A stretch of 64,000 nucleotides of DNA from an uncultured Bacillales bacterium (GTDB lineage Bacteria > Bacillota_I > Bacilli_A > Izemoplasmatales > Hujiaoplasmataceae). The DNA is taken from positions 1,823,517 through 1,887,516 of the forward strand of contig OW818673.1 of assembly GCA_942493185.1 (NCBI GenBank), read 5' to 3'. Both the position numbers and the translations under genes were made by a program. The notes under the pieces are model-generated. The model was not told the origin of the DNA. It did no database searches and was given only the letters and a program-made list of their open reading frames with translations. Of the stretch, positions 21,717 to 63,542 are shown one piece after another; position 1 is the stretch's first letter; each line of letters starts with the position of its first letter.

Positions 21717-21736
21717 CATGAAAATGAGGTGAAGAC

Positions 21737-24667: not shown

Positions 24668-24715
24668 AATTGAAAAGTAACGCATAAAAATGTATAATGA
24701 AAGTTGGAGGATTTT

Positions 24716-25378: not shown

Positions 25379-25389
25379 GGGTATCAAGT

Positions 25390-31936: not shown

Positions 31937-31996
31937 ATTAGGTCGCAATTATTGGATGTGTCTTTACAAAAAACACTTCTATGATATAATAGGTAT

Positions 31997-45060: not shown

Positions 45061-45375
45061 ATGTCAATTCTCAATGCTTTGAGATTCAATGCAATTATTG
45101 ATACAATCAATGGTTTCTTAGAACCACTAATTACTAATGGAGTCCAATTATTACAAGGCTTTCCAATCTGGATTCAAGGTTTAATTTTGTTAGCACTCGG
45201 TCTTTTTGCCATTATCGGAGTATTCGTGTTTATCAAAAAATTCTTTAAGCTTTTTATCGTTCTCGCAATACTAGGCGCCATCGGCTATTACTTGTATTTT
45301 GAGACCGACATCATCACCAATCTACTTGGAAGCCTAACTACCGCGATTTTCACAACCCTACCGACACTGCTGTAA
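45061..45375 (+). CDS. Small membrane protein, unknown function
   Basis: 104 aa with two or three hydrophobic helices, RBS gaggtga, and its own promoter and terminator. Confidence 0.55.
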   Translation: MSILNALRFNAIIDTINGFLEPLITNGVQLLQGFPIWIQGLILLALGLFAIIGVFVFIKKFFKLFIVLAILGAIGYYLYFETDIITNLLGSLTTAIFTTLPTLL

Positions 45376-45380: not shown

Positions 45381-45421
45381 AAAGAGTGTTGCTTTTTCCT
45401 AAAGCAAAACTCTTTTTTTTT
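45381..45421 (+). terminator. Rho-independent terminator
   Basis: Long interrupted stem aaagagtgttgcttt / aaagcaaaactcttt followed by T9. Confidence 0.8.
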
Positions 45422-45544
45422 CATTAAAACCCATATTTATCCCACTTTTATTAGCATCATTCTCAAAGATATATAGAATATATATATTTTTGAAATTTTA
45501 TGTTTATACACGTTGCTAACACATTACGAATAGGAGAATTAATC

Positions 45545-46627
45545 ATGGAAATCAAAATGCTTAACTTAACCAAAATCTTCGTCAGTAAGGACAAAAGAGA
45601 GGTTCATGCGGTTGATCATGTCGATTTGACAATCCCGGCAGGAAAACTCATTGGCTTACTCGGACCTTCTGGTTGCGGTAAATCAACAACCCTTTATCTC
45701 ATTGCCGGTCTATTAAGACAAACCGAAGGCGAAATTTATTTTGGAGATGAAGAAGTATCAGACACCCCTCCAGAAAAACGGGGAATTGGACTGGTATTTC
45801 AGAACTACGCATTATATCCACACATGACCGTTCGTGAAAACATTCTTTTCCCACTTGAAAACCTCAAAGTAGAAAAGAATGAAGCGAAAGAACGGACCAT
45901 TGAAATGGCAAAATTGGTGGGTCTTGGCGAAATGCTGGACCGAAAACCAAAAGAACTCTCCGGTGGTCAACAACAACGTGTTGCGATTGCGCGTGCATTG
46001 GTTAAGAAACCCAGAGTTTTATTGCTAGACGAACCGCTTTCGAACTTAGATGCCCGCTTACGTTTACAAACTCGCGAAGAAATCAAACGGATTCAACGCG
46101 AAACAGGAATTACGACCGTGTTTGTAACCCATGACCAAGAAGAAGCAATGTCCATTTCTGATGAAATCGTCGTTATGAAAGATGGCGTTATCCAACAAAT
46201 GGGCAAACCCCAAGAAGTCTATGATCACCCCGTCAACCTTTTTGTTGCGAGATTCTTAGGAACACCACAAATCAATATTTTTGACGGCGTTATCAAAGAT
46301 CAAAAGATTTACATTAGCAATATGTTGGTTGGTAAAACAACGTTAGCAGATCAAACTGTCAAGATTGGTGTTAGACCAGAAGGTTTCGTTGTTGATGCAA
46401 CCAAGAAAAGCGAATTTAAATTTGAAATCGATTTGGTTGAAACAATCGGCCGCGATACAACCCTAATTATCGAAGTTCCTGGAAATGAAGGAAGCCTCCT
46501 CGATAAGATTACCTTTAAAGCCATTGTTGATGCTACGCACCGTATTCAAGCGGGTGATTGGGTTCATTTCTCCATAAAACCGGAAAAAATGCATTTATTT
46601 AATCTTGAAGGCAAGTTTCTTGAATAA
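45545..46627 (+). CDS. ABC importer ATP-binding protein (MalK/UgpC/MsmX type)
   Basis: Walker [11 protein letters not shown]-loop, LSGGQQQR, Walker B LLLDEP, and a C-terminal MalK-like regulatory/TOBE domain. I prefer the ATG at 45545 (RBS aggaga). Confidence 0.93.
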   Translation: MEIKMLNLTKIFVSKDKREVHAVDHVDLTIPAGKLIGLLGPSGCGKSTTLYLIAGLLRQTEGEIYFGDEEVSDTPPEKRGIGLVFQNYALYPHMTVRENILFPLENLKVEKNEAKERTIEMAKLVGLGEMLDRKPKELSGGQQQRVAIARALVKKPRVLLLDEPLSNLDARLRLQTREEIKRIQRETGITTVFVTHDQEEAMSISDEIVVMKDGVIQQMGKPQEVYDHPVNLFVARFLGTPQINIFDGVIKDQKIYISNMLVGKTTLADQTVKIGVRPEGFVVDATKKSEFKFEIDLVETIGRDTTLIIEVPGNEGSLLDKITFKAIVDATHRIQAGDWVHFSIKPEKMHLFNLEGKFLE

Positions 46628-46629
46628 AT

Positions 46630-47541
46630 ATGGAGACAAAAAATAACTTAAAGGCTTGGCTGTATCTTGCGCCAATGCTGATATTAATGATTGTTTTCAC
46701 CTTTTACCCGTTAATTAACGCATTTGTCATCTCGTTTTACAAAGGATACCTCCCTTTAGGAAATGATGGAGCTGGCTCTATCACCGGTTATACCTTCGCA
46801 AACTATGGTGTTATTTTAAGAAACCAATTATTCTGGGATTCGATTAAAAACACCTTCACCCTCGCTTTTGTCTCAGTACCTATTTCGATTATCATCTCTT
46901 TGTTAATTGCTGTGGCCTTAAAAGCCATTCCAAAACTTAAAGGATTTTTCCAAACCATCTTTTTCCTTCCGTATGTTACCAACGGTATCGCCGTCGGTAT
47001 GACTTTCGCGGTTATGTTCCACCGCGAATATGGATTGTTTAATTTGGTCTTAAGTTGGTTTGGCATTGCTCCCATGGACTGGATTAATGGCGGGGCAACT
47101 TGGTGGGCTCAAATGGGTGCATTAATGATTTTCACCATTTGGGAAAGTTTGGCCTTTAAAATCCTCGTCTTCGCAAGCGGACTTCAAAACATTGATAAAC
47201 AATATTATGATGCCGCAAAAATCGATCACGCGACGAAATGGACGATTTTCAAACGCATTACCATTCCACTTTTATCGCCTTTAATTCTTTATATTTCCAT
47301 TACTTCTATGATTGGCGCATTGAAAGCCTATAACTCAGTCATTGGATTATTTGGTACAAATCTAGGGGGTCAACCCTACTCGATGATTACCATCGTTGCG
47401 TTCGTCTATAAGTACCGTTCTGATTTTGCGTTTGAAGGTTATTATAGTTACGCAGCCGCAGCAGCCATCATTCTGTTTTTCATTACACTCGTTTTTTCGC
47501 TGGTTCAAACCATGATCAGCAAAAAACGCGTGCATTATTAG
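46630..47541 (+). CDS. ABC importer permease (CUT1 family, MalF/UgpA-like)
   Basis: 303 aa, 6 predicted TM helices, EAA-like loop DAAKIDHATKWTIFKRITIP. Its start is 2 nt after the ATPase stop. Confidence 0.9.
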   Translation: METKNNLKAWLYLAPMLILMIVFTFYPLINAFVISFYKGYLPLGNDGAGSITGYTFANYGVILRNQLFWDSIKNTFTLAFVSVPISIIISLLIAVALKAIPKLKGFFQTIFFLPYVTNGIAVGMTFAVMFHREYGLFNLVLSWFGIAPMDWINGGATWWAQMGALMIFTIWESLAFKILVFASGLQNIDKQYYDAAKIDHATKWTIFKRITIPLLSPLILYISITSMIGALKAYNSVIGLFGTNLGGQPYSMITIVAFVYKYRSDFAFEGYYSYAAAAAIILFFITLVFSLVQTMISKKRVHY

Positions 47542-47553
47542 GGGGTGCTGACG

Positions 47554-48486
47554 ATGTCTGATGTTTATGTAAAAAATGAAGTATCTTACAAAACAAAGAA
47601 AATTATCGGCAATATTCTCACGTATTCCTTCTTGGCAGCCGTTGCCATTGTTGTCCTAGTGCCTTTTTATTGGATGATTCTGACCTCTTTAAAAAGCACT
47701 ATTATGATTGAACAGATTCCACCGTTGTTATTCCTAAGACCCTCTGAATGGCGCTTAAGCAACTATACCAGCCTCTTCGAAATTGTGCAGGGTGGCGCCA
47801 GAGACGGTCAACCCGTCTTCCCATTCTTCACCTATTTGGGAAATACAGTCTTAGTATCAATCATCACCACGATTGGCACAACGATTACCACGATTTTAGC
47901 CGCTTACGCGTTTGCGCGTTTAAACTTTAAAGGACGCGACATCGTATTCGCCATTATTCTTGGCACGATGATGATTCCTGGCGAAATCTTTATCTTAACA
48001 AACTTTATTACTGTTAACCGTTTAGGGTTATATGATATCAACAACCAAACCTTCTCGGATGCTTTAATTGCGATGACCTTGCCCTTTATGACCAGCGTAT
48101 TTTATACGTTTTATCTCAGACAAACGTTTAAACAAATTCCGAACGAGCTTTACTACGCTGCAAAAGTGGATGGTACCAGTGATTTTAAATATTTGTTAAA
48201 AATCATGATTCCGGTTGCCAGTCCCACCATCATCACCATCATTATTCTTAACTCCATGGGTGCATGGAGCGCCTATATCTGGCCGGCGATGGTTACTGCA
48301 AAAGACTCATTCCGACTTGTTTCCAACGGATTGCGCGGAGCATTTACGGATGCCGGTACCGGAAGAACCAACTTTGGACAACAAATGGCTTCAGCGACGC
48401 TTGTCACGTTACCATTACTCATCATCTTCTTTGTATTCCGCAAACAAATTATGCGCGGTGTATCTAGAAGCGGTATTAAAGGCTAA
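47554..48486 (+). CDS. ABC importer permease (CUT1 family, MalG/UgpE-like)
   Basis: EAA loop YAAKVDGTSDFKYLLKIMIPV. ATG at 47554 with RBS gggggtg. Confidence 0.9.
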   Translation: MSDVYVKNEVSYKTKKIIGNILTYSFLAAVAIVVLVPFYWMILTSLKSTIMIEQIPPLLFLRPSEWRLSNYTSLFEIVQGGARDGQPVFPFFTYLGNTVLVSIITTIGTTITTILAAYAFARLNFKGRDIVFAIILGTMMIPGEIFILTNFITVNRLGLYDINNQTFSDALIAMTLPFMTSVFYTFYLRQTFKQIPNELYYAAKVDGTSDFKYLLKIMIPVASPTIITIIILNSMGAWSAYIWPAMVTAKDSFRLVSNGLRGAFTDAGTGRTNFGQQMASATLVTLPLLIIFFVFRKQIMRGVSRSGIKG

Positions 48487-48539
48487 ACCCACGAAAGTGG
48501 ATTAATATAATCTACAAAAATAATTAAAGGAGAAAATAC

Positions 48540-50216: not shown

Positions 50217-50243
50217 AATATCTGACACAAAGGACTGAATGAA

Positions 50244-51713
50244 ATGTTTAAAAAATTAACTTTGATCATACTTGCCGTTTTCCTCACCGTGGGAATTACT
50301 GCTTGCAACAAGACAACGACGGCCACCACGACCACTACGGAAACGACAACAAGCGATTCACTGGTATCACTCCCTAATTTAAATGGAGCGAACCGCGAAA
50401 CGATTACTTCAACGCTTGAAGGCCTTGGACTGACGGTTAAATATTTCTTCGATGTGACAACCCCTTTTACAAGCGAAAGTCAGTATGACAAGTTTGTTAA
50501 ATACGGAACCGACCTCGTTGCCGGCTCACAAGTTCAAATCGGCACCGAAGTCCGTGTTTATACCACCCCGCTTAATCTTTCCATCCAATACTATCCCAAT
50601 CTTGATGCTTCCTTGCAATTAGAAGTAGCGGATTATCAAGGAAAAGAATTTATTGAAGATGGCATTGGCGTAGTAACAGTCAACCGTTACGTGGATGGCG
50701 ATACCACTCAGTTTACCAGTGGATCCGAATCATTCTCAGTTCGATATTTAGGAATTGATACCCCAGAATCAACCGCATTGTATGAGGCTTGGGGAAAAGC
50801 CGCAGCCATCTACACGGAAAACAAATTGAAAAATGCTGAAACCATCGTTCTTGAAGCCGAAGGCGAAAGACAAGATGGTAATGGCAGATATCTCGCTTGG
50901 GTTTGGTACCGCGAGACCGCTGAAAGCAAATTCATTCTTCTCAATTTGGAATTGGTGGAATTAGCCTATTCTAAAAACAAAGTTGCCATCGGTTCAAAAT
51001 TTACGACCGTTCTGACTTTGGCAGACTGGAATGCCTCTTTGACGAAAAGAAGAGTTTGGGGAGAATTAGACCCCGCCTTTGATTACAGCAAAGAAGGAAC
51101 CCAAATGAGTATTCAGCATTTGATGGAGCATTTCGATGATTATGTCGGCTTAAAAGTCGTCGTCACCGGAACCATCACGAGAATGATTGGCAACAACATC
51201 TTTTTGCAGGATGAAAATGGTTATGGTGTTTATATGTACGCCGGGTTTACCACCTCCGCCCAACTTCAGTTGGGGGTTAATGTAACCATCGGCGCTTTAA
51301 CACCCACCTATTACAGTGGAAGTCCACAATTATCCAATTTTAACAAGATTAATTTAACGGTCAATTCTTCAGACAACATTGTTACACCCTTAGTCGTAAC
51401 GTATAACGATTTCACATTTAGTCGGATTGGCACACTAGTGACCATCCAGAATCTCACGATTACCGGAGTGAATGGTGCGAAAACAAGCATTTATGTAAAA
51501 GATGCTTTAAATCAAACATTCACCGTCCGAATCGATGACTCAACCGGCTTAAACGCCGATACTTTAGGTCTTACCGTCGGTCAGATCATCAGTGTCACTG
51601 GACCGCTCAGCTATTATGACTACGATTATGATAGTTCTAATACCAATTATGTTTATGAGCCTTCCAATTTCCAATTGATGTTAACGTCCGCCGATGATTT
51701 AGTAATAGAGTAA
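50244..51713 (+). CDS. Lipoprotein nuclease: PASTA-like module, staphylococcal-nuclease (SNase) domain, tandem OB-like modules
   Basis: 489 aa. Lipobox ITAC plus poly-Thr. LPNLNGANRETITSTLEGLGL...GTEVRVYT looks PASTA-like. The SNase core is VDGDTTQF...VRYLGIDTPES...GERQDGNGRYLAWVW...LNLELVELAYS. The C-terminal part (LKVVVTGTITRMIGNNIFLQDENGYGVYMY...) resembles the OB modules of YhcR/ExeM-type nucleases. Confidence 0.85.
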   Translation: MFKKLTLIILAVFLTVGITACNKTTTATTTTTETTTSDSLVSLPNLNGANRETITSTLEGLGLTVKYFFDVTTPFTSESQYDKFVKYGTDLVAGSQVQIGTEVRVYTTPLNLSIQYYPNLDASLQLEVADYQGKEFIEDGIGVVTVNRYVDGDTTQFTSGSESFSVRYLGIDTPESTALYEAWGKAAAIYTENKLKNAETIVLEAEGERQDGNGRYLAWVWYRETAESKFILLNLELVELAYSKNKVAIGSKFTTVLTLADWNASLTKRRVWGELDPAFDYSKEGTQMSIQHLMEHFDDYVGLKVVVTGTITRMIGNNIFLQDENGYGVYMYAGFTTSAQLQLGVNVTIGALTPTYYSGSPQLSNFNKINLTVNSSDNIVTPLVVTYNDFTFSRIGTLVTIQNLTITGVNGAKTSIYVKDALNQTFTVRIDDSTGLNADTLGLTVGQIISVTGPLSYYDYDYDSSNTNYVYEPSNFQLMLTSADDLVIE

Positions 51714-51746
51714 TAAGATTCAAAAATATACTATAGGAGGAATCAT

Positions 51747-54700
51747 ATGAAATTGTCTTTCAAGAAACTAGCCTTACTTGGATTAGCCTTGACTGCTATG
51801 TTCGTGCTTGTCGGTTGTGTTGAAAACACCACAACAACGACAACCCAATCAACATCCAGTCAAACCTCAGCGACACTCTCTGACACTCAGAAAGTTCAAG
51901 CTGTTTTGGATGGCATCACACTCGGTGATGTAACAGCCGTGACTGCTAATTTAACATTACCGACCGCAAGCGTTAATGGCGTTGCCATCTCTTGGTCAAC
52001 AGAGGATGCCGATATCGTCTCAGCAACAGGCGAAATCACAATCCCAGACTATGTTACCGGAGATCAAAGTGTTACATTGACCCTAACCGCTACTTTAAAT
52101 GCGGTAACATTGACAAAGACTTTTGAAGTTACTGTCAAATCCGAAACGGCTCAAGTTTTCCTAAACAGAGTCGCAGCTAGCATCATCATCGATGGTAGCG
52201 ATTCGATTGTTGCCAACTTTAAATTACCGGGAACAGCACAAGGTGCAACCATCGTTTGGTCTTCAAGCAACCTTGATGTAGTAACAATTGGTGCCGTTGC
52301 TGATGGCGAAGGATTCTACACCGCTACAGTAGTACGTCCAAAAATGGAAGATGGTGGCGTTAACACATCCGTCACATTGACCGCTGCTTTAACGATTGGA
52401 TCGACAACAGTAGAAGCCACTAAATCAGTTCGTATTATTGCTGAACCATTGGCTACTGTTTATACGTCTTTCCAAACGTTACATGAAACAGCCTTATTGA
52501 ATGATTATGTCGACCTCACCGGAACAGTATACGCTAAATTTAAACTTGGCTACTTCATGGTTGATACCGTTGGCAAATACATCGCCATCTATACAACCGA
52601 AGCCAACGCTTCCGCAGTTGCCATTGGCGATTCCGTTCATGTTAAAGGTTTGTATAAGAACTATAACACCTTATTCCAAATCTCGAACTTAACAAAACAA
52701 GAAGTCTTATCTTCTGGCAACCCAGTGAATATTACCAAAATCGTTTTAGAAGATGCAAATGATCTTCTTGACGTTGATTCTTCAAACAAATTGATTCATG
52801 GTCAAGTTTATACCATTACCGTAACACCACAATTAAGAGGTACTTATAACAACGTTTATCTATTTGCAGGTGCAACTCAAGTTGCGACTGTATATTACAA
52901 TTCACTTGCTGCTTCGATTGATGCTTTAGAAGAAGTTGTAGGCAAAGTTGTAACAATCGATGTTGTATATTACACCTTCTATTCAGGATCTAGCGTTTTA
53001 ACGCCTGGCGTACCTGAAGTTTATATTACCTTTGACGGCCTTGCTGCTGATATCGAACTTGCTCCACTCGTTGGACAAGAAGCTTTGGATGCAGATGCTG
53101 CCAATATCGCATTAACAACTGCTGTTGTCGGCGGACAATCCTTCACTCTTCCAACAACCGGCGGATATGGCTCAGCCATCGCTTGGTCAGTTACAACCGG
53201 CGGAGCTTATGCTTCGATCGCTAGCGGAAAATTGACATTCGTTGATGTTACCGCTGTTCAAGAAGTAACAGTTACTGCTAGCTTGACTATTGATGGAGTG
53301 GTTGATCCTACGACCAGAGTCTTCACGTTTACTGTGACTCCAATTACAACTTCAACCATCGCTCAAGTATGGGGATTGGCAAAGAACGACATCGCCCAAG
53401 TTGAAGGCACTGTATACTTCTTTATCAATAACGGTTACTTCGTATTTGATGGCACTGGATTGTTATTCATCTACACGACAGCTCCAGCAGGTACTGCACT
53501 TGGCGACAAATTAGTCATTTTCGGTACAGTTGACATTTATAACGGTCAACATCAAATTAAATCAGCTGTTGTTAAATCGGTTACTTCAACCGGCAACGCT
53601 TATGCACAAACACCTGTAACTTATGTTCCCGGAACGACAGCATTGGTAAGTGGACAAACTTACGCTGTTACCGCAACCATTAAAGAACTTACCGAAGGTG
53701 GATACACGAACCTATTCTTATTTGATGGCGAAACCAAATTAGCTCAAATCTACTATCGTTCAACCATTAATGGCTCATATGCCGCTTTACAAGCTAATAA
53801 GGATAAAGAAGTTATCGTTAATGTTGTATTCTATTATGTAAGTAATGAAGTAGTGTTCTTTGTATATCAAGAAGGTGCTGCAGGTATCGTATTTACTCCT
53901 GAACAACAAGCTGCTATTAACGCAGAAAACGTTACTACAAAAACATCAGTCGTAAGTGCTGAAGTCGTTGCTCTTCCCGCTTTGGAAGGCGCATCGACCA
54001 TCGTTTGGGCCGTTAAAGACGCTAATCCAAACGCAACCATCCTCGATGGAAATGTCACATACGCTACTGTTGCATCCGCAACACAAGTAACTTTAGTCGC
54101 AACCATCACATTTGACATGGGTGAAGCTGCAGATATCGTAGATGTCAAAGAAATCGTTGTTACCATTTCGACATATGCTGAAAAAGTATTAGAAGACAAA
54201 ACAGCATTAACCGTCGCTTTGACAGCCAATGAATTTGATGTTATCACTTTACCAGTTGCTGGATTAAATGGTTCGGCAATCACATGGGCTTTAACAGCTA
54301 CAGATAACGCTACATTAGCAGCGAACGTATTAACACTTGAATATCTCGGTGTTGAATACTCTGTTACCGTTACTGCTACCCTCGCTTTCGCAGCTGCTCC
54401 AGAAGCAACTGAAACCAAAGAATTTGTTATCGTTGTTTCTCCAGTGACCATTATTACTGAATTTGGTCCTTATACAACTCAAACAGCTGGCGCTTGGACA
54501 ATTCCAAATGCCGTCGGCGTATATATTAAGGGTGTTGTAACTGGATTTAATGGAACAAACGGAATCTTTGTTCAAGACGCTAGTGGCGATGCATTGTATG
54601 TTTATACACCAGCCATTGTTAGTTTAGTTGCTATAGGCGACGAAGTTGTCGTTTATGGTAATCTGGTTGATTACAAAACATCCTATGCTATTGAATACAG

Positions 54701-56102
54701 ATTTAGAGAAATCGACACCGCTTCACTAAAAACAAAATTAACAACCGGCAACGCCGTTGTCGTTACCACATTGACGGTTGCCGAAATCGAAGCCATGAAT
54801 TTCTATGAAAACTTAGGTAAAGTTATGGAAGTTACTGGATTCGTCGTTTCATACGATGCTTCCAACATTTACTTCAATTGGAAATTGGTAGGCGATCCCG
54901 CTGTTCAATACACGATTTCCTTCTATGATTCCTTAGCACCATGGTTGAGATCAGTATATCCTGCAGGCTCTGTACTCCCAGCCGTCCAATTCACATTAAC
55001 GAACATTTCGTCGAGCTTCACGAAAGTTTATGGCGGTAACTTAGTTATCACTATGACTGATGAAAATGCCATCGTTGCTGATTCTAAAAAACTTCCAGCT
55101 TCCTTAGAATTAGTAGCTAGCTATGTATTACCAACCCCAACGTTTGGTACTGCATTTGCCATTACAGCAATCTCAGCTGAATTGACTGCTTATATTACAA
55201 ATCAAGGCGTTGTAACATTGCCAGAAACGACAGATGCTGTTGGAACCATCACCATCTCTGTAACAAAAGGCACAGCTACTCCTCTAGATGTTGTGGTTGC
55301 AGTCACAATTAAAGCCATGACAGATGCTCAAAAATTAGCTGATGTCCTTGCTGATCTTCCCGCTACATTAGCATTAGCTTACCATTACACCATCCCAACA
55401 CAATACAGCGCTGTTTTCAGCGGTCTTGTAGTTCCAACAGAGTTGACCGGACTAGTAGCATTATCTGCTGATGCATCAAAACTTGAAATCGTTCGTCCTG
55501 CAGGAACTGCTCCAGCAATTGGAACCGTCACATTAACCGTTACTGTTGGTACCGCAACACAAAACGTTGACATCGCCATGACTGTTATGGGACTTACCGA
55601 TTTGTTCTTCTCTGAATACATCGAAGGCGGAAGTAATAACAAGGCTTTCGAGATTTACAACGGAACTGGCGCATCAGTTGATTTGTCAGCTTACTCGGTA
55701 GAATTATATGCTAACGGTGTTAGTGTTCCAGGTACTACTGTTGTTTTAACAGGAACTTTAGTTGACGGCGACGTTTATATCATTTTCAACTCTGGTTCAG
55801 TAGCTGGTATAACCTCAATTGGTGACCTTGCAAGCACATTGACTTATTACAATGGCGATGACGCATTAGTATTAAAACACAACGGCGTAATTATCGATGT
55901 TATCGGCCAAGTAGGAACTGACCCAGGCACTTTATGGGGTACTGCTGGCGTAAATAGCACTCTTAATATGACGCTCGTAAGAAAATCTACCGTTCATGTT
56001 GGAGACGTAGTAGCATCCGATCCGTTCGATCCATCTGTTGAATGGGATGCATACCCACAAGATACATTTACTTATCTCGGCTCTCACACAGAAGCAGAGT
56101 AA
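51747..56102 (+). CDS. Giant surface lipoprotein: about 7 Ig-like repeats, 3 OB-like modules, C-terminal lamin-tail domain (LTD); no catalytic domain recognised
   Basis: 1451 aa. Lipobox LVGC plus a Thr/Ser linker. Repeated L-P-x-x-x-x-G-x-x-I-x-W-S ... V-T-L-T-A-T Ig-like units. OB-like modules at about aa 237-440, 535-715 and 905-1100. LTD from aa ~1283 (nt ~55593): LFFSEYIEGGSNNKAFEIYNGTGASVDLSAY...YYNGDDALVLKHNG. Confidence 0.85.
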   Translation: MKLSFKKLALLGLALTAMFVLVGCVENTTTTTTQSTSSQTSATLSDTQKVQAVLDGITLGDVTAVTANLTLPTASVNGVAISWSTEDADIVSATGEITIPDYVTGDQSVTLTLTATLNAVTLTKTFEVTVKSETAQVFLNRVAASIIIDGSDSIVANFKLPGTAQGATIVWSSSNLDVVTIGAVADGEGFYTATVVRPKMEDGGVNTSVTLTAALTIGSTTVEATKSVRIIAEPLATVYTSFQTLHETALLNDYVDLTGTVYAKFKLGYFMVDTVGKYIAIYTTEANASAVAIGDSVHVKGLYKNYNTLFQISNLTKQEVLSSGNPVNITKIVLEDANDLLDVDSSNKLIHGQVYTITVTPQLRGTYNNVYLFAGATQVATVYYNSLAASIDALEEVVGKVVTIDVVYYTFYSGSSVLTPGVPEVYITFDGLAADIELAPLVGQEALDADAANIALTTAVVGGQSFTLPTTGGYGSAIAWSVTTGGAYASIASGKLTFVDVTAVQEVTVTASLTIDGVVDPTTRVFTFTVTPITTSTIAQVWGLAKNDIAQVEGTVYFFINNGYFVFDGTGLLFIYTTAPAGTALGDKLVIFGTVDIYNGQHQIKSAVVKSVTSTGNAYAQTPVTYVPGTTALVSGQTYAVTATIKELTEGGYTNLFLFDGETKLAQIYYRSTINGSYAALQANKDKEVIVNVVFYYVSNEVVFFVYQEGAAGIVFTPEQQAAINAENVTTKTSVVSAEVVALPALEGASTIVWAVKDANPNATILDGNVTYATVASATQVTLVATITFDMGEAADIVDVKEIVVTISTYAEKVLEDKTALTVALTANEFDVITLPVAGLNGSAITWALTATDNATLAANVLTLEYLGVEYSVTVTATLAFAAAPEATETKEFVIVVSPVTIITEFGPYTTQTAGAWTIPNAVGVYIKGVVTGFNGTNGIFVQDASGDALYVYTPAIVSLVAIGDEVVVYGNLVDYKTSYAIEYRFREIDTASLKTKLTTGNAVVVTTLTVAEIEAMNFYENLGKVMEVTGFVVSYDASNIYFNWKLVGDPAVQYTISFYDSLAPWLRSVYPAGSVLPAVQFTLTNISSSFTKVYGGNLVITMTDENAIVADSKKLPASLELVASYVLPTPTFGTAFAITAISAELTAYITNQGVVTLPETTDAVGTITISVTKGTATPLDVVVAVTIKAMTDAQKLADVLADLPATLALAYHYTIPTQYSAVFSGLVVPTELTGLVALSADASKLEIVRPAGTAPAIGTVTLTVTVGTATQNVDIAMTVMGLTDLFFSEYIEGGSNNKAFEIYNGTGASVDLSAYSVELYANGVSVPGTTVVLTGTLVDGDVYIIFNSGSVAGITSIGDLASTLTYYNGDDALVLKHNGVIIDVIGQVGTDPGTLWGTAGVNSTLNMTLVRKSTVHVGDVVASDPFDPSVEWDAYPQDTFTYLGSHTEAE

Positions 56103-56138
56103 ACGTTAATTTATCACATATATTTACAGATTTGAATT

Positions 56139-56170
56139 AAGGCGCAGCTGTCTTGGCTGTGCCTTTTTCT
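56139..56170 (+). terminator. Rho-independent terminator after the 1451-aa gene
   Basis: Stem aaggcgcagc / gctgtgcctt (one G-U pair) followed by T5. Confidence 0.7.
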
Positions 56171-56206
56171 TAATTTGAGAAAATGCATCGAGAAATAGAC
56201 CTAAAA

Positions 56207-56215
56207 TGATATAAT
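56207..56215 (+). promoter_or_regulatory. Extended -10 (TGATATAAT) for the second LTD lipoprotein gene
   Basis: Exact 9-mer 43 nt upstream of the ATG at 56258. Confidence 0.5.
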
Positions 56216-56257
56216 TGAATTAATATCTATCAAGTCAATTATATGAGAGGTCTATGT

Positions 56258-58183
56258 ATGAATTTGCGCAAATTTTTATTGATTTTCACACTCTTCATTG
56301 CATTATTTGGTATCGTTGCTTGTGATAAAAACGTTGAAACAACAACCACTACCGAATCTACATCAAGTACTCAATCAACCACATCAACGACTGTATCTTC
56401 AGGGACTACGATTACTACAACTACCACAAGCAATACCACAATCTCAACTACAACCACAACGACGACCGCTACAACCCAGGATCAAACTCTATTGCTTCTG
56501 GAAGCCGCTGCAAGTAACATCGTTATTGCTAATGCCGATAACATTACCGCTGATTTCCAATTACCCTCAAATGCTGGTTCCATTGAAATTGTTTGGGAGT
56601 CCAGTAATCCTGAAATCATTATTATTGCCTCAACCACTGTTTCGGTTGAAGAAGCCCAATTCTTTAATGTATTGGTAAACAGTCCCGCTGGTTCAGATGA
56701 GACTATTACTTTGACCGCAACTTTATCCTTAAATGCTCAGACGCTTGAAAGATCAATTCAATTAGTTGTAAAAGCGGAAGTGGGGCTATCGGCTTATAAT
56801 ACAGTAAGCGAAATGTATTCAACCGCCGTTTTAAATGAATATATTCAAATGTCGGGTTACGTCTATATGGTTTACGAAGCTGGATATGCAATTCTCGATT
56901 CGAATGGGGACGGACTTATTATCTATACAACCGTAGAAAATGCCGATTTGGTTCAGGTTGGCGATTATGTATCCGTTAAAGGCATTTATGCTCAGTATAA
57001 TACCCTTTTCCAATTAAAAGATTTAACGAAGCAATATATTTTAAGTCGGGGAAACAATGTTTCTGTATCTCCAATCATTTTAGAGAATCCACAGGATTTA
57101 TTAGCAGTAGATTCAGCCAATAAATTAAATCATGGAAAGATTTATACCATCACCACCGAAGTTTATATCAACGGTTCTGGAAATGTTGTCTTATATGATG
57201 GAGAAACTTACATAGGAACAGTCTATTATAATTCCAATGTTGACTCGATAAACGCACTTAAAGCCCATGACGGCGAAAAAGTGACCATCGATGTCTTATA
57301 TTATGTTCTTCATCCAACCGATGGTGTTCGAGTGGCCTTTGATGGATTAGAAGAAGACATTGAAGTTGTTCCCTACACGTTAGAACAAATGTTTAATCTA
57401 GATGGTCAAATCTTATCTGAACCAATTACCCTATCTGACTTATTTGAACTCCCCCAATTGTTATTCTCTACGTATGATGGCATCGTTATCTCAGAAGCGT
57501 TGGCCAACAATTTAACGTACGATGGAAATGAGTACGCAATTGTTCGCCCATCGAACATAGAAGGAAATGTATCCGGTACTTTGACAATTACCATTCGTAT
57601 TGGCGAAGAAACAAGAGAAGTTATTGTGAATGTTACGATTATAGCGGAATCATCAGCCAGCGCCACTGACTTGTTTATTAGTGAGTACATCGAAGGCGGA
57701 AGCTACAATAAACTAATAGAAATCTACAACGCAACCAATAGCGCAATTGATTTATCCGAATACACCCTAGAACTGTATGTTTGTGGCTCATCTTGTGCAA
57801 CAACCGCCTCAACGGTTCTCTCCTTAAGCGGCACACTCCAACCCGGTCAAACATTAGCGATATATAATGCCGGTGCCACCGCAGAATTTAAATTAAAAGC
57901 GAATATCAATGTCGAATCGAATCCTTTGGCCAATTTTAATGGCGATGATACGATTGTATTAAAACATAACGGCGATATCATTGATAGTATTGGACAAATT
58001 GGCACTGATCCCGGTGATTTTTGGGGCGATGTATCCGTATCCACGAAAGATATGACTCTGGTTCGTAAGCCATATATTAAATCAGGAGATACTAATCCTA
58101 ATGATGCCTATGATCCTAGCGCGGAGTGGATTGCATATGCAAAAGATACATATACTAATGTTGGAACGCATACCGTCGAATAA
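56258..58183 (+). CDS. Surface lipoprotein, shorter paralog of 51747-56102 (Ig-like repeat, one OB-like module, Ig-like unit, C-terminal LTD)
   Basis: About 641 aa from the ATG at 56258 (RBS gagagg). Lipobox IVAC plus a ~55-aa Thr/Ser-rich linker. It is colinear with aa ~140-440 of the 1451-aa protein (for example [19 protein letters not shown] versus KGLYKNYNTLFQISNLTKQ). LTD from nt ~57664: [31 protein letters not shown]...[13 protein letters not shown]. Confidence 0.85.
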   Translation: [641 protein letters not shown]

Positions 58184-58191
58184 TTAAAGAT

Positions 58192-58233
58192 AAAAAAAGA
58201 ACGCCAAGACATAAAAAATCTTGGCGTTTTTGT
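58192..58233. terminator. Bidirectional terminator (LTD gene / endonuclease I gene convergent)
   Basis: Perfect 10-bp stem aacgccaaga / tcttggcgtt with A-run and T-run flanks. Confidence 0.8.
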
Positions 58234-58250
58234 TCATCAATTTTTATTGA

Positions 58251-59540
58251 TTAAGACCAAATCATGTCCACAAATTGTGGATAATCAATGAATGGATTAC
58301 GGTTATGTTGGAATGAATAGATTTTGTCGTTGCGGTTTCTTTCAAAATCATCGACAGGGTCTAAATCGTGCCATTCCAATAACGTATCAAGTTTTCCCAT
58401 TTGATTGGTTGTTGGCGTTGTATTTACTAACGAATATATTTGATACATAATAACCATATAGAATAATATTCTAGCTAAATCGCCTCGCACTTCTAGTCGG
58501 GTGGGAGCATAGCTGACGGAAGTTGTCAAATCATCATAAAATTTATTACCACGGCTGGAATTGGTTGAGGGATTAGCGGGTTTCAGATTATGAAGATCAC
58601 TTGCGGCATTGACCGTTCCGTTATCAGCGGGAACCCCTAATAATGATTGCGGCCACACATGTTCTCGGTTCCATGTGATACCACCATCCCATGCGCCGCT
58701 AACAGAAGTACCCAGATAAACCAAAATGAGATTGTTCGCATTATTGGGGTCTCTATCGGTATCATCGAGCATGTATCTTGCATCCCCATAAGTGACGCCA
58801 ACAAAACCGGTGTGGACGATGATTCTTAGTTGACTAACCAACTGTGTTCCTGTTAAACCTTCAGCGCTTTGGTAATATTCTGTTAATACAAGGGTATCTT
58901 CAGAAATTGTAATGGTGAAAGAAGATTCTAAGCCCAGTACGGATATGATGACCTCAACTTCACCAACCGTTGACATATCCACATCGTTTAGAGAATATTG
59001 CGAATTTGTTAAAGTAATATAAGAGGTATCTTCACCCACAAGTTTAACCACCATTCCGGTTAAATCAAGAGTTTCGTTAACGGAATATTCTAGTTTTGTT
59101 GGCGGGGTAACGGATAATGTAAATGAGAAGTTTATGGGTGTTTCTTTGACATAGACCACAAAGGTCTTTGTAAAAGTAGCATAAGTAACCGTAATTGTTT
59201 GCATACCCGGTGTTTGGTTGTCATAACCAGAGACAGTATATACTTCACTTGATAAAACGGTTTTATCGCCCAATCCGTTAATAGCACTGACAATTAGACC
59301 GGTTAAATCGAGTGATTCACCCAATTCATAAACATTTTTGTATGTACCGGATAACTCAATATCAACGTCGTGTTGCCACCATGTACCAGAGGTGAGATAC
59401 TCCGTTGTCGTAGAAGCGGTGGTTTCTGTGGTTGCTGTTGTTGTTGTGCTGGAAGTGGTAAATAAGTCACAAGCAAGAACGGAAAAACTGGTTAATAAGA
59501 TTAAAAGAAATGCGATTATTTTTTTTGTGTAAAATGTCAT
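58251..59540 (-). CDS. Lipoprotein Endonuclease I family nuclease with two N-terminal Ig-like domains
   Basis: 429 aa. Lipobox VLAC plus poly-Thr. Two units of the Y-x-x-G/N-E-x-L-D-L-T-G-L/M-x-V ... V-T/I-V type. The Endonuclease I core carries NREHVWPQS, DLHNLKPANPSTNSSRGN, RGDLARILFYM and NRNDKIYSFQHNRNPFIDYP. Confidence 0.88.
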   Translation of the reverse strand: MTFYTKKIIAFLLILLTSFSVLACDLFTTSSTTTTATTETTASTTTEYLTSGTWWQHDVDIELSGTYKNVYELGESLDLTGLIVSAINGLGDKTVLSSEVYTVSGYDNQTPGMQTITVTYATFTKTFVVYVKETPINFSFTLSVTPPTKLEYSVNETLDLTGMVVKLVGEDTSYITLTNSQYSLNDVDMSTVGEVEVIISVLGLESSFTITISEDTLVLTEYYQSAEGLTGTQLVSQLRIIVHTGFVGVTYGDARYMLDDTDRDPNNANNLILVYLGTSVSGAWDGGITWNREHVWPQSLLGVPADNGTVNAASDLHNLKPANPSTNSSRGNKFYDDLTTSVSYAPTRLEVRGDLARILFYMVIMYQIYSLVNTTPTTNQMGKLDTLLEWHDLDPVDDFERNRNDKIYSFQHNRNPFIDYPQFVDMIWS

Positions 59541-59690
59541 AATAGCCCAACCTTTATATAGAGTAATGAAGTGTATTTAGTATACCACAATTTTTGGATA
59601 ATTCCAATTGTTTCTATCATGCCCCCTACCCCAATAAAGTGCAATACAAGCCATTTTAGAAGCCTTTATCTTTCTATCTCGAATATTCCA

Positions 59691-59699
59691 TGATATAAT
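59691..59699 (+). promoter_or_regulatory. Extended -10 (TGATATAAT) for the DHH gene pair
   Basis: Exact 9-mer 32 nt upstream of the ATG at 59731. Confidence 0.5.
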
Positions 59700-59730
59700 A
59701 TAATACTCTAAAGAATATGGAGTTTATGAA

Positions 59731-60666
59731 ATGACAAAAACAATCATCGACTTAATCAATGAAAACCAAAAAATAATTATCTTACGCCATAAAGATCCCG
59801 ACTTAGACGCATACGGGTCACAATTTGGATTATATTATGCACTAAAAGCCAAATTTCCCAATAAACAAATAAGTGCCGTTGGCGATACCAATGCATTAAA
59901 TCGTTTTGAACCGTTAAGTACTGTTTTACCTTCAGATTATCAAGAGTCCTTGGTATTTATCTTGGATACTGTTTCCAAACAAATGCTTGAAGGATCTTTA
60001 TACGAACAATCAAAAACACTTGTTTTGATTGATCACCATCAAAACGAACCCGATATTCGTTATGACCACTATATAAGGAATACAAGCGCGTCCTCGTGCG
60101 CGGAGATGATTGCGAGTTTCTTGCTTGAAAATCATATCCCGATTCCTTTAAATTCAGCGGGCGCTTTATTTACCGGGATTGTATCTGATACAGGTCGGTT
60201 CTTATATCGAAACGTCACAGCAACATCCTTTGAAATTGCGGCTAAATTAATCGCAACCGGCCTTGATATTCAACCCATTTACGCCCAAATGTATTCTGAA
60301 CCCTTACAAAACAAACGCTTAAAAGCGATCTTCTTTAGTACCGTTCAGTTCTCAAAACATCACGTTGCTTACCGAAAGAACGATGAGGACTTCTTAAAAG
60401 CCAATAATATTGATTCTTACAGCGTTAGCCGTGGGATGGTTAATCAAATGTCTGGTATTGATGAAGTGCCGATTTGGGCAAACTTTACATATGACCAAAA
60501 AACTGGTAAAATCTTATGTGAGCTCCGCTCTAAAAACATCGCCATTGTCGATGTTGCAAAAAAATATGGCGGCGGTGGACACTTAAACGCTTGTGGCTGT
60601 ATGGTATCATCGTGGGAAGAAACGGATTTAATCATACAAGATTTAGATAACCTATTGGAGGAATAA
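59731..60666 (+). CDS. nrnA: DHH/DHHA1 phosphoesterase (NrnA-like nanoRNase / pAp phosphatase)
   Basis: 311 aa with HKDPDLDAYGS, ILDT, DHH (LIDHHQN), SDTGRF, and the DHHA1 motif GGGGHLNACG. Confidence 0.85.
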   Translation: MTKTIIDLINENQKIIILRHKDPDLDAYGSQFGLYYALKAKFPNKQISAVGDTNALNRFEPLSTVLPSDYQESLVFILDTVSKQMLEGSLYEQSKTLVLIDHHQNEPDIRYDHYIRNTSASSCAEMIASFLLENHIPIPLNSAGALFTGIVSDTGRFLYRNVTATSFEIAAKLIATGLDIQPIYAQMYSEPLQNKRLKAIFFSTVQFSKHHVAYRKNDEDFLKANNIDSYSVSRGMVNQMSGIDEVPIWANFTYDQKTGKILCELRSKNIAIVDVAKKYGGGGHLNACGCMVSSWEETDLIIQDLDNLLEE

Positions 60667-60667
60667 C

Positions 60668-61633
60668 ATGGACAAACAATTTATACTAGATAAGATTTTA
60701 GCGTACAAAAAAATCATCATACACATGCATATGCGTCCAGATGGCGACTGCTACGGCGCCGGATTTGGACTAAAGCACATTCTTAAAGAATCATTTCCCG
60801 AAAAAGAAGTTTACATTGTTGGCGAAACGGCCGATTATGTTAAATTTATCGGCGATGTGGATATCATCACAGATGAAACCTACCAAGGAGCTTTATCGAT
60901 TGTGGTGGATACTGCCACAAAAGACCGTGTTGCAGATCAACGCTTTGTAAAAGGCGAATACGTCATTAAAATTGATCATCATCTCCCAGTAGATCAATAC
61001 GGGGATTACCAATACGTGGATGTTACAAGACCGGCAACCTCACAAATCATTTTGGAATTTTACTTAGAATATTCCAATATTTTGAAACTCAATATGGCCG
61101 CAGCTAGAGCGCTATACACCGGCATCGTCACCGATACCGGTCGGTTCAAATACCGTTCAGTTACCGCTGATACCTTTAAAGCCGTCGCTCATTTAATCGA
61201 TTTTGGCCTTGATTTTGGTAATATCCTAACAATGTTAGATGTTAAAACCGAAAATCAAATGAAACTTCAAGGTTATGTCTTACAAAACTTCGAAAAGACA
61301 CCCAATGGCGTTGCCTATATCAAAATGTCTCCAGACATCATTAAAAAATTCAATGTTTCTTTAGAAGAAGCAACCTCCTTGGTCAACGAATTATCGTGTT
61401 TAGAGGATTGCCCGGTATGGATGTTATTCGCTGAATACGAAAACAACATTGTCAGAGCCAGACTACGTTCAAAAGGCCCCGCCATCAACTTGTTAGCCAA
61501 CAAATATGACGGCGGCGGACACCCCATGGCCTGCGGAGCCAATGTTGGAAACTGGGAAACGGTTGATAAGATTTTAAAAGACGCAGACGATTTAGTTAAA
61601 GAGTATAAAGCCAATTTAAAGCCAATCGCTTAA
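60668..61633 (+). CDS. Second DHH/DHHA1 phosphoesterase (NrnA/Pde2-like paralog)
   Basis: 321 aa with HMRPDGDCYGAG, VVDT, IDHH, TDTGRFKY and GGGHPMACG. Its start is 1 nt after the previous stop. Confidence 0.85.
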   Translation: MDKQFILDKILAYKKIIIHMHMRPDGDCYGAGFGLKHILKESFPEKEVYIVGETADYVKFIGDVDIITDETYQGALSIVVDTATKDRVADQRFVKGEYVIKIDHHLPVDQYGDYQYVDVTRPATSQIILEFYLEYSNILKLNMAAARALYTGIVTDTGRFKYRSVTADTFKAVAHLIDFGLDFGNILTMLDVKTENQMKLQGYVLQNFEKTPNGVAYIKMSPDIIKKFNVSLEEATSLVNELSCLEDCPVWMLFAEYENNIVRARLRSKGPAINLLANKYDGGGHPMACGANVGNWETVDKILKDADDLVKEYKANLKPIA

Positions 61634-61655
61634 TCAAACTTATTCATTCATTACG

Positions 61656-61696
61656 AGAGCTATTCCCCGTATTCTTATCGGGAATAGCTCTTTCTA
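61656..61696 (+). terminator. Rho-independent terminator after the DHH pair
   Basis: 12-bp perfect stem agagctattccc / gggaatagctct followed by a T-rich tail. Confidence 0.8.
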
Positions 61697-61760
61697 TTTA
61701 TATTTTATGCAATTAATCGAATGAAAGTGTTTTTATATTATTCTTTTATTGAAGCGGATT

Positions 61761-61769
61761 TGATATAAT
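61761..61769 (+). promoter_or_regulatory. Extended -10 (TGATATAAT) upstream of the Na/Pi cotransporter gene
   Basis: Exact 9-mer about 95 nt upstream of the start codon. Confidence 0.45.
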
Positions 61770-61865
61770 GATAGCGGCTGAGAAAACCATAAAAACAATT
61801 TGCCTTCTGGCAATTCAATGATATAACTTTACAACATTCGACACACTATAAATCGGAGGGTTTGC

Positions 61866-63542
61866 ATGCTGCTAATGGATATCGTAATTGATTGGCAATG
61901 GACCATTTTTCACATCGTCGGCGGTCTTGGAATTTTTTTATACGGAATAAACCTCATGGGCGATTCGCTCAAAAAGATCGCAGGTAAAAAATTAAAAATC
62001 ATTTTAGAAAAAACAACGAACACGCCCCTTAAAGGAATTTTCGTTGGTATTATCGTTACTGGATTAATCCAGTCCTCTTCGGCAACCACCGTTTTAGTGG
62101 TTGGCTTAGTCCGCGCCGGCTTGATGACTTTACCGCAAGCGGTTGGTGTTATATTTGGTGCTAACATAGGTACCACCATCACCTCCATTTTAATCGGGTT
62201 AGACATAGGAGCTTATGCACTTCCCATCATGTTTGTGGGTAGTGCCTTGTCATTCTTCTTCCAAGGTAAAAAAATACGCGATATTGGAAAAACTATTTTA
62301 GGCTTTGGAATGATGTTTTTCGGACTCGAATTAATGGGTGATTCATTAAAACAATTGGCTCAGTTACCCAGCTTTGCAAATATGCTCTTATCCGTCGCAC
62401 ATTACCCAATTCTAGGGGTTTTAGTCGGACTTGGCACCACAGTGGTCATTCAATCTTCTTCGGCGACCATTGGTCTATTACAACAACTATTCGTGACTGG
62501 CGGTATTCCTTTAGTTGGCGCTATTGCCATCGTATTGGGAGATAACATTGGCACAACGATTACTTCTGTAATCGCTTCAATTGGGGCACCTTCTGCCGCG
62601 AAGCGATCAGCAGCGATTCATGTCATGTTTAACTTAATTGGTAGTGTCGTCTTTTTCATCTTATTGACGCCTTATACAGCTGTAGTAGCTTGGGTTAGTG
62701 AAAGCATGGTAGGCGCTGGCTATTTGACCGATAAATTAACCGTATCAGTTGCCCACGTTTTGTTTAACGTCATCAACGTCTTCGTCTTGTATTGGTTTAT
62801 CAAACAAATGGTTTGGGTGGTAACCAAGCTTATCCCCTCTAAAAACGAAGTGGTTATCGACGACATCGTTTTAGATGAATCGTTGGTTCAAAACTCGGCC
62901 GTCCTTGCGTTGGAAAACTCGAAAAAAGCGATTATCAATATGGGAAATGTTTGCCGCGCGATGTTTGAATATGCGTACGATTATTCCTTTGAAAATGTGG
63001 CGAAGAACCGTGAAATGGGTTTGCAATGCGAAGAAATTATTGATGGCATGGATGACAAGATTCATAACTATTTGGTCCGGGTCGGAGCGGGAGAATTAGG
63101 CCGTTACGAAATGACGGAAATGGCCAAACAAATTGATACGATCAGTGACTTTGAACGTATTGGCGACCATTTGACCAATTTGATTGAATTCTTCGAAGAA
63201 CGCTATAACCAAAAAATCGATTTACATCCTGAAGCAAAAGCCGATTTGGTCGATTTATATACCTTATTAAGAAAGACCTTGCATCAGTCGCTACAAGCCT
63301 TTGATTCTAAAGACAAAAACGTTGCGACGGAAGTCAATGTCCGTGAAAACGAATTAGACAAACTCGTCAAAAAGTATCGTAAAAACCATATCAACCGGAT
63401 TAATGACAAAACCTGTTCTGAAACCGAAGCGGGATTTTACGTCGATATCCTTTCGAATATGGAACGCATTGGCGACCATTGCAATAACATCGTTGTTAAT
63501 GTGCTTTCTGAGAGTTATTCGCATGACGATAATTTCTTTTAA
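61866..63542 (+). CDS. Na+/phosphate cotransporter (NptA/YjbB type) with a C-terminal PhoU-like domain
   Basis: 558 aa. Duplicated QSSSATT/QSSSATI and GANIGTT/GDNIGTT motifs of the Na/Pi-cotransporter family. C-terminal paired ERIGDH motifs (PhoU-like). Confidence 0.9.
   Translation: MLLMDIVIDWQWTIFHIVGGLGIFLYGINLMGDSLKKIAGKKLKIILEKTTNTPLKGIFVGIIVTGLIQSSSATTVLVVGLVRAGLMTLPQAVGVIFGANIGTTITSILIGLDIGAYALPIMFVGSALSFFFQGKKIRDIGKTILGFGMMFFGLELMGDSLKQLAQLPSFANMLLSVAHYPILGVLVGLGTTVVIQSSSATIGLLQQLFVTGGIPLVGAIAIVLGDNIGTTITSVIASIGAPSAAKRSAAIHVMFNLIGSVVFFILLTPYTAVVAWVSESMVGAGYLTDKLTVSVAHVLFNVINVFVLYWFIKQMVWVVTKLIPSKNEVVIDDIVLDESLVQNSAVLALENSKKAIINMGNVCRAMFEYAYDYSFENVAKNREMGLQCEEIIDGMDDKIHNYLVRVGAGELGRYEMTEMAKQIDTISDFERIGDHLTNLIEFFEERYNQKIDLHPEAKADLVDLYTLLRKTLHQSLQAFDSKDKNVATEVNVRENELDKLVKKYRKNHINRINDKTCSETEAGFYVDILSNMERIGDHCNNIVVNVLSESYSHDDNFF

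Follow-up and report, generated by a model that had tools for sequence, protein, structure and literature searches.

Introduction

How does a bacterium without a cell wall feed on nucleic acids that lie outside it, and in which chemical form do the products cross its membrane? These questions are raised by a gene cluster in a stretch of 64,000 nucleotides (hereafter the window) from an uncultured Bacillales bacterium of the Izemoplasmatales, family Hujiaoplasmataceae (assembly GCA_942493185.1, contig OW818673.1, positions 1,823,517 to 1,887,516 of the forward strand), whose positions are counted here from its first letter. Extracellular DNA is a major pool of phosphorus, nitrogen and carbon in sediments and the subsurface, and the Izemoplasmatales, wall-less and free-living relatives of the mycoplasmas, are its best-documented specialist consumers. 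Between positions 45545 and 63542 the window encodes an ATP-binding cassette (ABC) importer with its substrate-binding protein (SBP), two surface nucleases, two surface lipoproteins built of OB modules and lamin-tail domains (LTD), two NrnA-like proteins and a Na/Pi cotransporter. We regard this cluster as, very probably, an Izemoplasmatales DNA-degradation locus, which would serve the acquisition of nutrients from extracellular DNA and RNA.

In the working that we propose for it, two lipid-anchored enzymes, a staphylococcal nuclease (SNase) with a C-terminal OB-like domain and an Endonuclease I with Ig-like domains, would cut polymeric nucleic acid at the membrane, while two lipid-anchored, non-catalytic proteins of Ig, OB and LTD modules would hold the polymer near the cell. 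A CUT1-type ABC importer, whose SBP belongs to the branch of UgpB and dinucleotide binders, would then take in small phosphorylated products, two cytoplasmic NrnA-like enzymes would hydrolyse the imported fragments to mononucleotides, and the Na/Pi cotransporter would handle inorganic phosphate. An earlier note on this DNA had already outlined such a route of capture, cleavage, import, trimming and phosphate handling. Intact catalytic residues, deep synteny and experiments in related organisms support that outline, and its claim to novelty falls. All 11 genes that the note had listed were recovered where it had placed them, its domains, lipoboxes, Thr-rich linkers and terminator at 56139 agree with ours, and searches with the hidden Markov models of Pfam and NCBIfam confirmed each domain assignment.

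A gene order kept among relatives

All the window proteins were mapped onto 80 loci, which a scan of species-representative genomes had yielded. Homologs bear the names of Candidatus Izemoplasmatales or Bacilli metagenome-assembled genomes (MAGs), and the nearest genomes are HGW-Tenericutes-1 and UBA5603, with 73-74% identity in the SNase protein. The order that is kept, dnaX-ybaB-recR-(orf104)-ATPase-permease-permease-SBP-SNase-OB/LTD protein-...-NrnA-NrnA-Na/Pi, spans the Izemoplasmatales, Mariniplasma/Acholeplasma-like MAGs, Liberiplasma and one Haloplasma MAG. The genes stand in this order, each with a tblastn match, in three of these loci: that of Ca. Izemoplasma acidinucleici scaffold_255 (L048) and two others (L002 and L003).

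The SBP gene lies directly upstream of the SNase gene in 64 of the 72 loci with enough sequence, and in the remaining eight the match always ends within the SNase protein at about residue 280-300, short of its C-terminal domain. Among full-length homologs, which carry both the SNase and the C-terminal domain, the SBP gene is directly upstream wherever there is enough upstream sequence (64/64), and the clustering is therefore not a matter of chance. The full ABC set is present in 57 of 66 loci and an OB/LTD gene follows just downstream in 55 of 66; the NrnA pair occurs within 10 kb in at least 31 of 43. The middle of the locus is variable: UBA5603-type genomes and the window carry a short second OB/LTD gene together with Endonuclease I in convergent orientation, and marine genomes have a second SNase in their place. 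A hydrophobic open reading frame (ORF) of 104 aa (45061-45375), followed by a terminator, sits between recR and the ABC operon; it is kept in many relatives at 40-73% identity, and a Pfam search with it gave no match.

Experiments with relatives point to the same function. DNA-based stable isotope probing labelled Ca. Izemoplasma, indicating uptake of carbon from DNA, and growth on DNA has been recorded. The cultured Xianfuyuplasma coldseepsis (zrk13), which has a similar locus, degrades DNA, is stimulated by it in its growth and induces genes of the locus, as followed by quantitative reverse transcription PCR (Zheng et al. 2021, ISME J, PMC8397711, Fig. 4). The same has been reported for Hujiaoplasma nucleasis (zrk29), where the locus includes a nucleoid-associated protein and RecR, which adjoin the locus in the window too (Zheng et al. 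2023, mBio, PMC10470597, Fig. S7); by the same technique, DNA or RNA induces such loci in both strains (PMC8397711, PMC10470597).

Surface nucleases and their non-catalytic partners

Both nuclease domains appear equipped for catalysis, as the earlier route presupposed. The SNase lipoprotein consists, in order, of a lipobox, a Thr linker, a PASTA-like domain, the SNase domain and a C-terminal DUF5689/OB-like domain, and PASTA and DUF5689 are also found in its homologs. Alignment to the nuclease of S. aureus places D151/D153/T154, R167, D172, T173, E175 and R215 at the active site, where D153/D172/T173 correspond to the Ca-binding Asp21/Asp40/Thr41 and R167/E175/R215 to the catalytic Arg35/Glu43/Arg87; these key residues are invariant or nearly so in the homolog alignment and in ~100 tblastn matches. 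The Endonuclease I protein, compared with Vvn, carries the EH general-base motif (E293-H294) together with N318, N327 and R330, all conserved in 7-8 orthologs, and its N327, the Mg-binding Asn of the DLHNL...N..R segment, aligns to Vvn Asn127.

The two OB/LTD lipoproteins, which the earlier note had described as non-catalytic, keep that description under several kinds of analysis. Neither matches a nuclease family or the EEP domain in Pfam or NCBIfam, and the ExeM models of NCBIfam align to them just over the LTD and OB regions (model positions 13-174 and 15-162). In the 1451-aa protein, mapped by phmmer with segments of the shorter paralog, aBig_2 Ig-like domains alternate with OB modules at about 239-416, 537-698 and 905-1090, and an LTD (1283-1448) forms the C-terminus; the Ig, OB and LTD modules tile its full length and leave no space for a catalytic domain. 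The 646-aa paralog has a lipobox, a long disordered Thr/Ser linker, an Ig domain, an OB module, a second Ig domain and an LTD. Its AlphaFold2 (AF2) model has a pLDDT of 83, with the Thr/Ser linker as the only disordered part, and its gene likely starts at the ATG at 56258, which follows a ribosome-binding site (RBS) GAGAGG and agrees with a 97%-identical homolog (P0245) of 641 aa. Foldseek searches with the domains of this model retrieved the OB folds of YgiW (probability 1.00) and of a telomere end-binding protein and no nuclease fold; the search with the whole chain found mostly generic multi-Ig proteins and is informative only at the level of the OB domain. Other proteins combine LTD homologs with EEP and Endonuclease_1 domains. 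The two proteins of the window may plausibly tether DNA near the cell, and their binding to it is a supposition.

In each of the five exported proteins of the locus a stretch rich in Thr and Ser comes after the lipobox Cys, as the earlier note had observed, but the feature is not specific to the locus. Lipobox and poly-Thr also occur in PstS (20727) and in a purple-acid-phosphatase-like lipoprotein (34351), and the combination is generic among the organism's lipoproteins. The second of these, encoded at 34351-35835, is a metallophosphoesterase whose lipobox and Thr-rich linker read LFGC-TEKTTTDVTDTTTG, and it is probably a further surface enzyme for scavenging phosphorus.

The binding protein and its candidate ligand

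The four first genes of the locus make up a CUT1 ABC importer, with a MalK-type ATPase carrying a TOBE domain, two MalF/MalG-type permeases and an SBP. The best NCBIfam match of the ATPase is UgpC (1.4e-109, under the equivalog cut-off), and MalK is also among its best matches. A profile of the SBP family, compared with the PDB, matched the Thermus 7C0x entries (1.3e-23), the glycerophosphocholine-binding UgpB of M. tuberculosis (1.6e-21) and the UgpB of E. coli (4.7e-17), where 7C0x, according to the PDB titles, is a dinucleotide-binding protein with uridylyl-3'-5'-phosphoguanosine (UpG) bound. The AF2 model of the SBP (pLDDT 89.6) gave a concordant result, the top 30 Foldseek hits being the UpG dinucleotide-binding protein and UgpBs, with a target-normalised TM-score of ~0.8.

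The residues of the binding site allow a closer comparison. Two Tyr and two Ser form a tetrad that coordinates phosphate; it is strictly kept in UgpB, in the glycerophosphocholine binder and in the UpG binder, and is not kept in glucose binders (PMC12718374, PNAS 2025). By alignment, the tetrad of the window SBP is Y94, S190, S339 and Y440 (Y65, S144, S253 and Y329 in the E. coli UgpB precursor); none of the four varies within the family alignment, and among 63-66 orthologs they are near-invariant. The Trp clamp with which UgpB holds glycerol (E. coli W169/W172) is neither aligned nor conserved, the position of Glu66 is occupied by P118, and the NCBIfam UgpB model scores the SBP at 20 bits against a cut-off of 411. 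Q400 and N403 agree with the dinucleotide binder and not with UgpB. The ligand site of the Thermus protein was probed by its depositors with mutants of Y56, F79, N81, S127, Y224, T240, Y246 and Q274; of these, Y56, S127 and Q274 are identical in the SBP, F79 and N81 are conservatively replaced (Y117 and D119), and the spacing of S339/Y345 would be compatible, as spacing alone, with that of T240/Y246. Residues 259-330 of the SBP (49314-49529) also show a weak likeness to binase/barnase ribonucleases (E ~0.9), which we treat as a coincidence, as the stretch lies inside the well-modelled SBP fold.

On the side of the importer's surroundings, no 5'-nucleotidase gene was found within the locus, and nucleoside import in mycoplasmas relies on a PnrA-type SBP, a different family. 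Because of the relatedness of the SBP to UgpB and the dinucleotide binder, its tetrad, the lack of a nucleotidase gene in the locus and the existence elsewhere of PnrA-type nucleoside import, we favour phosphorylated fragments (dinucleotides, very short oligonucleotides or nucleoside monophosphates) over nucleosides as the imported ligand, a proposal to which we give a little less than even chances.

Once inside, the fragments would meet the two DHH/DHHA1 proteins, both of which have the DHH and GGGH motifs, lack a signal peptide and find their best NCBIfam match in NrnA; a division of labour between them may be supposed.

Relatives of the window also hint at a physical connection between capture and import. 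In GCA_016937095.1 the orthologous SBP, in the same locus, is interrupted by an LTD at around residue 480 of the window protein, and the large protein there shows no LTD. Such an insertion would tie the function of the LTD to the importer, and the swap of the domain between tethering protein and SBP suggests a hand-off of products at the membrane. Taken together, we tentatively advance, still short of an even chance, that the locus contains a dedicated importer of phosphorylated nucleic-acid fragments, for which the tandem NrnA-like enzymes would be the obligate cytoplasmic finish and to which the capture modules would be physically coupled. The literature that could be searched held no description of a nutritional oligonucleotide-import pathway of this kind for any bacterium. 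If the prediction of the ligand is true, it would explain why two nanoRNases travel with the importer and why the locus can do without a nucleotidase.

Weighing the alternatives

A number of points weigh against the reading offered here. For this genome, the support comes from sequence together with experiments on relatives. The identity of the SBP to the dinucleotide binder is just 17-18%, sugar binders come close behind (9xf5 with 5e-19 by profile, GacH with 7e-19 by fold), and sequence comparison assigned no counterpart to three of the Thermus residues (Y224, T240 and Y246), SBP residues 259-374 giving only chance-level matches to the PDB. The scores of the NrnA model (202.5 bits for paralog 1 and 244.6 for paralog 2) lie under the equivalog cut-off of 350, so that the name places them in the family and says no more. 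ExeM depends on its OB-like region and can do without its LTD, a domain with no established role that is not known to bind DNA. Any co-regulation of the locus would have to span at least five predicted transcription units, among which no shared operator or Pho box was found. Finally, Wasmund et al. (PMC8289736) inferred from the gene neighbourhoods of SBP homologs that the importer carries nucleosides or nucleobases.

That published inference leads to an alternative with the same overall role for the locus, where products would lose their phosphate before uptake, nucleosides or nucleobases would pass through the importer and the NrnA pair would belong to general RNA turnover. The surface purple-acid-phosphatase-like lipoprotein 10 kb upstream in the window would fit it, and a Na/Pi transporter would suit phosphate released extracellularly. 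However, the SBP is CUT1/UgpB-like and not PnrA/BmpA-like, the family with demonstrated nucleoside binding in mycoplasmas; it retains the tetrad that coordinates phosphate, the locus has no nucleotidase gene, and at least 31 of 43 relatives keep the NrnA pair in synteny with the importer, all of which makes this version rather unlikely in our view. The tetrad itself could be turned to another account, in which the transporter is an ordinary importer of the UgpB type for glycerol-3-phosphate or glycerophosphodiesters and the region a general island for scavenging organophosphates; the best NCBIfam matches of the four ABC components are indeed UgpC, UgpA, UgpE and UgpB, and pstSCAB-phoU-phoPR is nearby. 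Yet all these scores fall far under the equivalog cut-offs, the Trp pair and Glu66 are absent, Q400 and N403 are as in the dinucleotide binder, and there is no ugpQ/glpQ gene. With an SBP that always accompanies a full-length SNase, and that has an LTD inside it in one relative, such an island is improbable.

Even less credit, and we think very little, can be given to a carbohydrate importer of the CUT1 type, or to surface proteins that act in adhesion, in biofilm remodelling or in DNA uptake for transformation and not in nutrition. Most CUT1 systems import sugars, and in the structure searches sugar binders rank closely behind the best matches; LTD and Ig-rich proteins of the surface may serve as adhesins, and ExeM affects biofilms. 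But the locus has neither com genes nor glycoside hydrolases, it is conserved together with the nanoRNase pair and the phosphate transporter, relatives use DNA for growth and switch the locus on, and the phosphate tetrad is reported to be absent from glucose binders (PMC12718374). Import of phosphorylated nucleic-acid fragments within a nutritional DNA-degradation locus stays the reading that we prefer, the identity of the ligand being its conditional part.

Predicted transcription units and features of the locus

The earlier note had treated the locus as one route, which in transcription is predicted to consist of several units. Its co-directional string (45545-56102) has intergenic gaps of 2, 3, 53, 27 and 33 nt, and downstream of 45545 no strong terminator precedes that at 56139-56165, in agreement with the note. 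Hairpins with U-runs at four places (Table 1) have folding z-scores from -3.9 to -6.6, and sites resembling extended -10 promoters precede the 646-aa gene, for which the note had proposed a promoter of its own, the NrnA pair and the Na/Pi gene; an RBS, AGGAGA, stands ahead of the ABC operon at 45532-45537. From these elements five likely units are predicted: the four ABC genes with SNase and the 1451-aa gene; the 646-aa gene; Endonuclease I on the minus strand; the NrnA pair; and the Na/Pi gene. On the 5' side, the predicted terminator at 45381..45424 would close a dnaX-ybaB-recR-orf104 unit and mark the boundary of the locus.

Comparison of 12-mers among the four intergenic promoter regions showed no shared operator, the generic extended -10 (TGATATAAT) being the only one to recur, and an Rfam scan found no riboswitch or other known RNA within the locus. 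Regulation by Pho was also considered, with a search of the whole window for the B. subtilis-type box (TTHACA-N5-TTHACA), and is unsupported: the only site at the promoters of the locus has two mismatches (45505), and the overall count is at chance level (75 observed, 82.8 expected). The sole perfect Pho box in the window, at 20626-20642, lies ~85 nt upstream of pstS.

Table 1. Predicted features of the DNA-degradation locus, and the LTD-inserted binding protein of two relatives
Feature	Position	Strand	Basis
Predicted terminator	45381..45424	+	Hairpin and U-run; fold -14.3 kcal/mol, z = -3.9
Promoter-like sites, ABC operon	45451..45488	+	Consensus scan, 9/12 matches, weak
MalK/UgpC-type ABC importer ATPase	45545..46627	+	Pfam ABC_tran 3.4e-39; C-terminal TOBE_2
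CUT1-type permease 1 (UgpA/MalF-like)	46630..47541	+	BPD_transp_1; NCBIfam best UgpA, far under cut-off
CUT1-type permease 2 (UgpE/MalG-like)	47545..48486	+	BPD_transp_1; NCBIfam best UgpE
Substrate-binding lipoprotein (SBP), 558 aa	48540..50216	+	SBP_bac_8; UgpB/dinucleotide-binder branch of CUT1
Surface SNase lipoprotein	50244..51713	+	Pfam SNase
1451-aa OB/LTD lipoprotein	51747..56102	+	aBig_2 x4 and C-terminal LTD
Intrinsic terminator ending the ABC-SNase-LTD operon	56139..56165	+	Fold -19.4 kcal/mol, z = -5.4
Promoter-like site, extended -10 (TGATATAAT), short paralog	56188..56215	+	Sequence scan
646-aa OB/LTD short paralog	56258..58183 (ORF from 56243)	+	aBig_2 and LTD
Predicted bidirectional terminator, convergent genes	58197..58231		Hairpin with A-run and T-run on either side; z = -5.8
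Surface Endonuclease I lipoprotein	58251..59540	-	Endonuclease_1 9.3e-27; Big_3 x2
NrnA-like DHH/DHHA1 paralog 1, cytoplasmic	59731..60666	+	DHH and DHHA1
NrnA-like DHH/DHHA1 paralog 2, cytoplasmic	60668..61633	+	DHH and DHHA1
Predicted terminator after NrnA pair	61655..61692	+	Strong hairpin, -22.4 kcal/mol, z = -6.6
Na/Pi cotransporter	61866..63542	+	Na_Pi_cotrans x2 and C-terminal PhoU x2
LTD-inserted SBP, 742 aa	L082 5641-7869 (GCA_016937095.1); L083 4604-6832 (SRR13394437)		Neighbouring 1375-aa protein shows no LTD

Elsewhere in the window

The window begins near the replication origin region, with dnaA and dnaN at 598-3246, which places the nuclease locus some ~45-63 kb from it. A pstS-pstC-pstA-pstB-phoU operon, followed by a response regulator and a histidine kinase (PhoPR-like), occupies 20626-27773, and directly upstream of pstS there is an ORF of 648 aa (18331-20277) whose N-terminus resembles a signal peptide and which matches no Pfam family. 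A T-box leader at 31994-32198 (93.1 bits, just at the gathering score) stands upstream of a DNA_alkylation-repair-like ORF (32238-32915), an unusual first gene behind a T-box, after which comes a gene for a class II tRNA synthetase of the Asp/Asn/Lys type (32925-34310).

Comparison with known systems

The earlier note had held that this combination of genes was not described as a unit. Precisely this unit was described by Wasmund et al. (2021, Nat Microbiol, PMC8289736, Fig. 6 and Supp. Table 5), as "DNA-degradation loci" of Ca. Izemoplasmataceae and family UBA5603. In scaffold_255 of that table the SBP is peg.643, the SNase 644, the large protein 646, the second surface nuclease 647, the NrnA genes 648 and 649 and the Na/Pi transporter 650. 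The loci of Wasmund and of Zheng share with the window the gene set and its order from ABC to Na/Pi, a further nuclease included, and the same place after dnaX-ybaB-recR; scaffold_255 is collinear with the window, each protein being 27-59% identical. The function proposed by Wasmund et al. is also the same, including the tethering of DNA by the large protein, which according to the supplement would keep DNA near the cell during digestion. These loci differ in coming from other species; the window adds the short OB/LTD paralog and the convergent Endonuclease I, whereas the marine genomes have the second SNase. In the published large protein of scaffold_255 (1049 aa), Pfam finds aBig_2, LTD and a weak S1/OB match and no Endonuclease_1. 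The C-terminal endonuclease I domain of its published annotation is thus not reproduced, and we would correct the annotation to that of a putative non-catalytic tether. The gene (L048 11087-14700) appears to be split from an upstream 157-aa aBig_2 ORF, possibly by a frameshift in the MAG.

With the extracellular nucleases ExeM, NucH, Xds and EddB, both OB/LTD proteins of the window have in common the LTD and a YhcR-like OB region. They differ in having no EEP domain and in presenting these modules as separate, lipid-anchored proteins with several OB domains, and they are not members of the ExeM/NucH nucleases. The SBP, for its part, has its best profile and fold matches in the T. thermophilus protein (7C0F series) and in UgpB (4AQ4, 6R1B), and the tetrad is kept; it differs from them in its identity of 16-18%, in being ~150 residues longer, with insertions and a C-terminal extension, and, from UgpB, in the absence of the Trp clamp.

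A more distant likeness is found in the P80-SNase-ABC operons of mycoplasmas (M. agalactiae MAG_5030-5070; M. hyopneumoniae mhp379), where a surface SNase and an SBP lipoprotein accompany a sugar-type ABC transporter. These genes are co-transcribed and have been proposed to supply the importer with nucleic-acid precursors. The ATPase and permease genes of M. agalactiae follow those of the SBP and SNase, and no OB/LTD proteins, Endonuclease I or Na/Pi transporter have been reported in the mycoplasma operons, which we liken to the window by gene content. A NrnA-type gene (MG_190/MPN140) presumably lies near the SNase-ABC cluster of M. genitalium/M. pneumoniae; a literature check for it found nothing.

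The locus type is therefore already known, and the window, which comes from a UBA5603-like and apparently complete genome, adds one more member to it. To this described type, the present analysis adds a sharper hypothesis on the ligand (phosphorylated di- or oligonucleotides, taken up through a UgpB-like SBP), the fusion of LTD and SBP, and the correction to the annotation of the large protein. Should the predicted ligand be the true one, it would possibly also explain what is imported by the SNase-linked "sugar" ABC transporters of pathogenic mycoplasmas, a puzzle of long standing.

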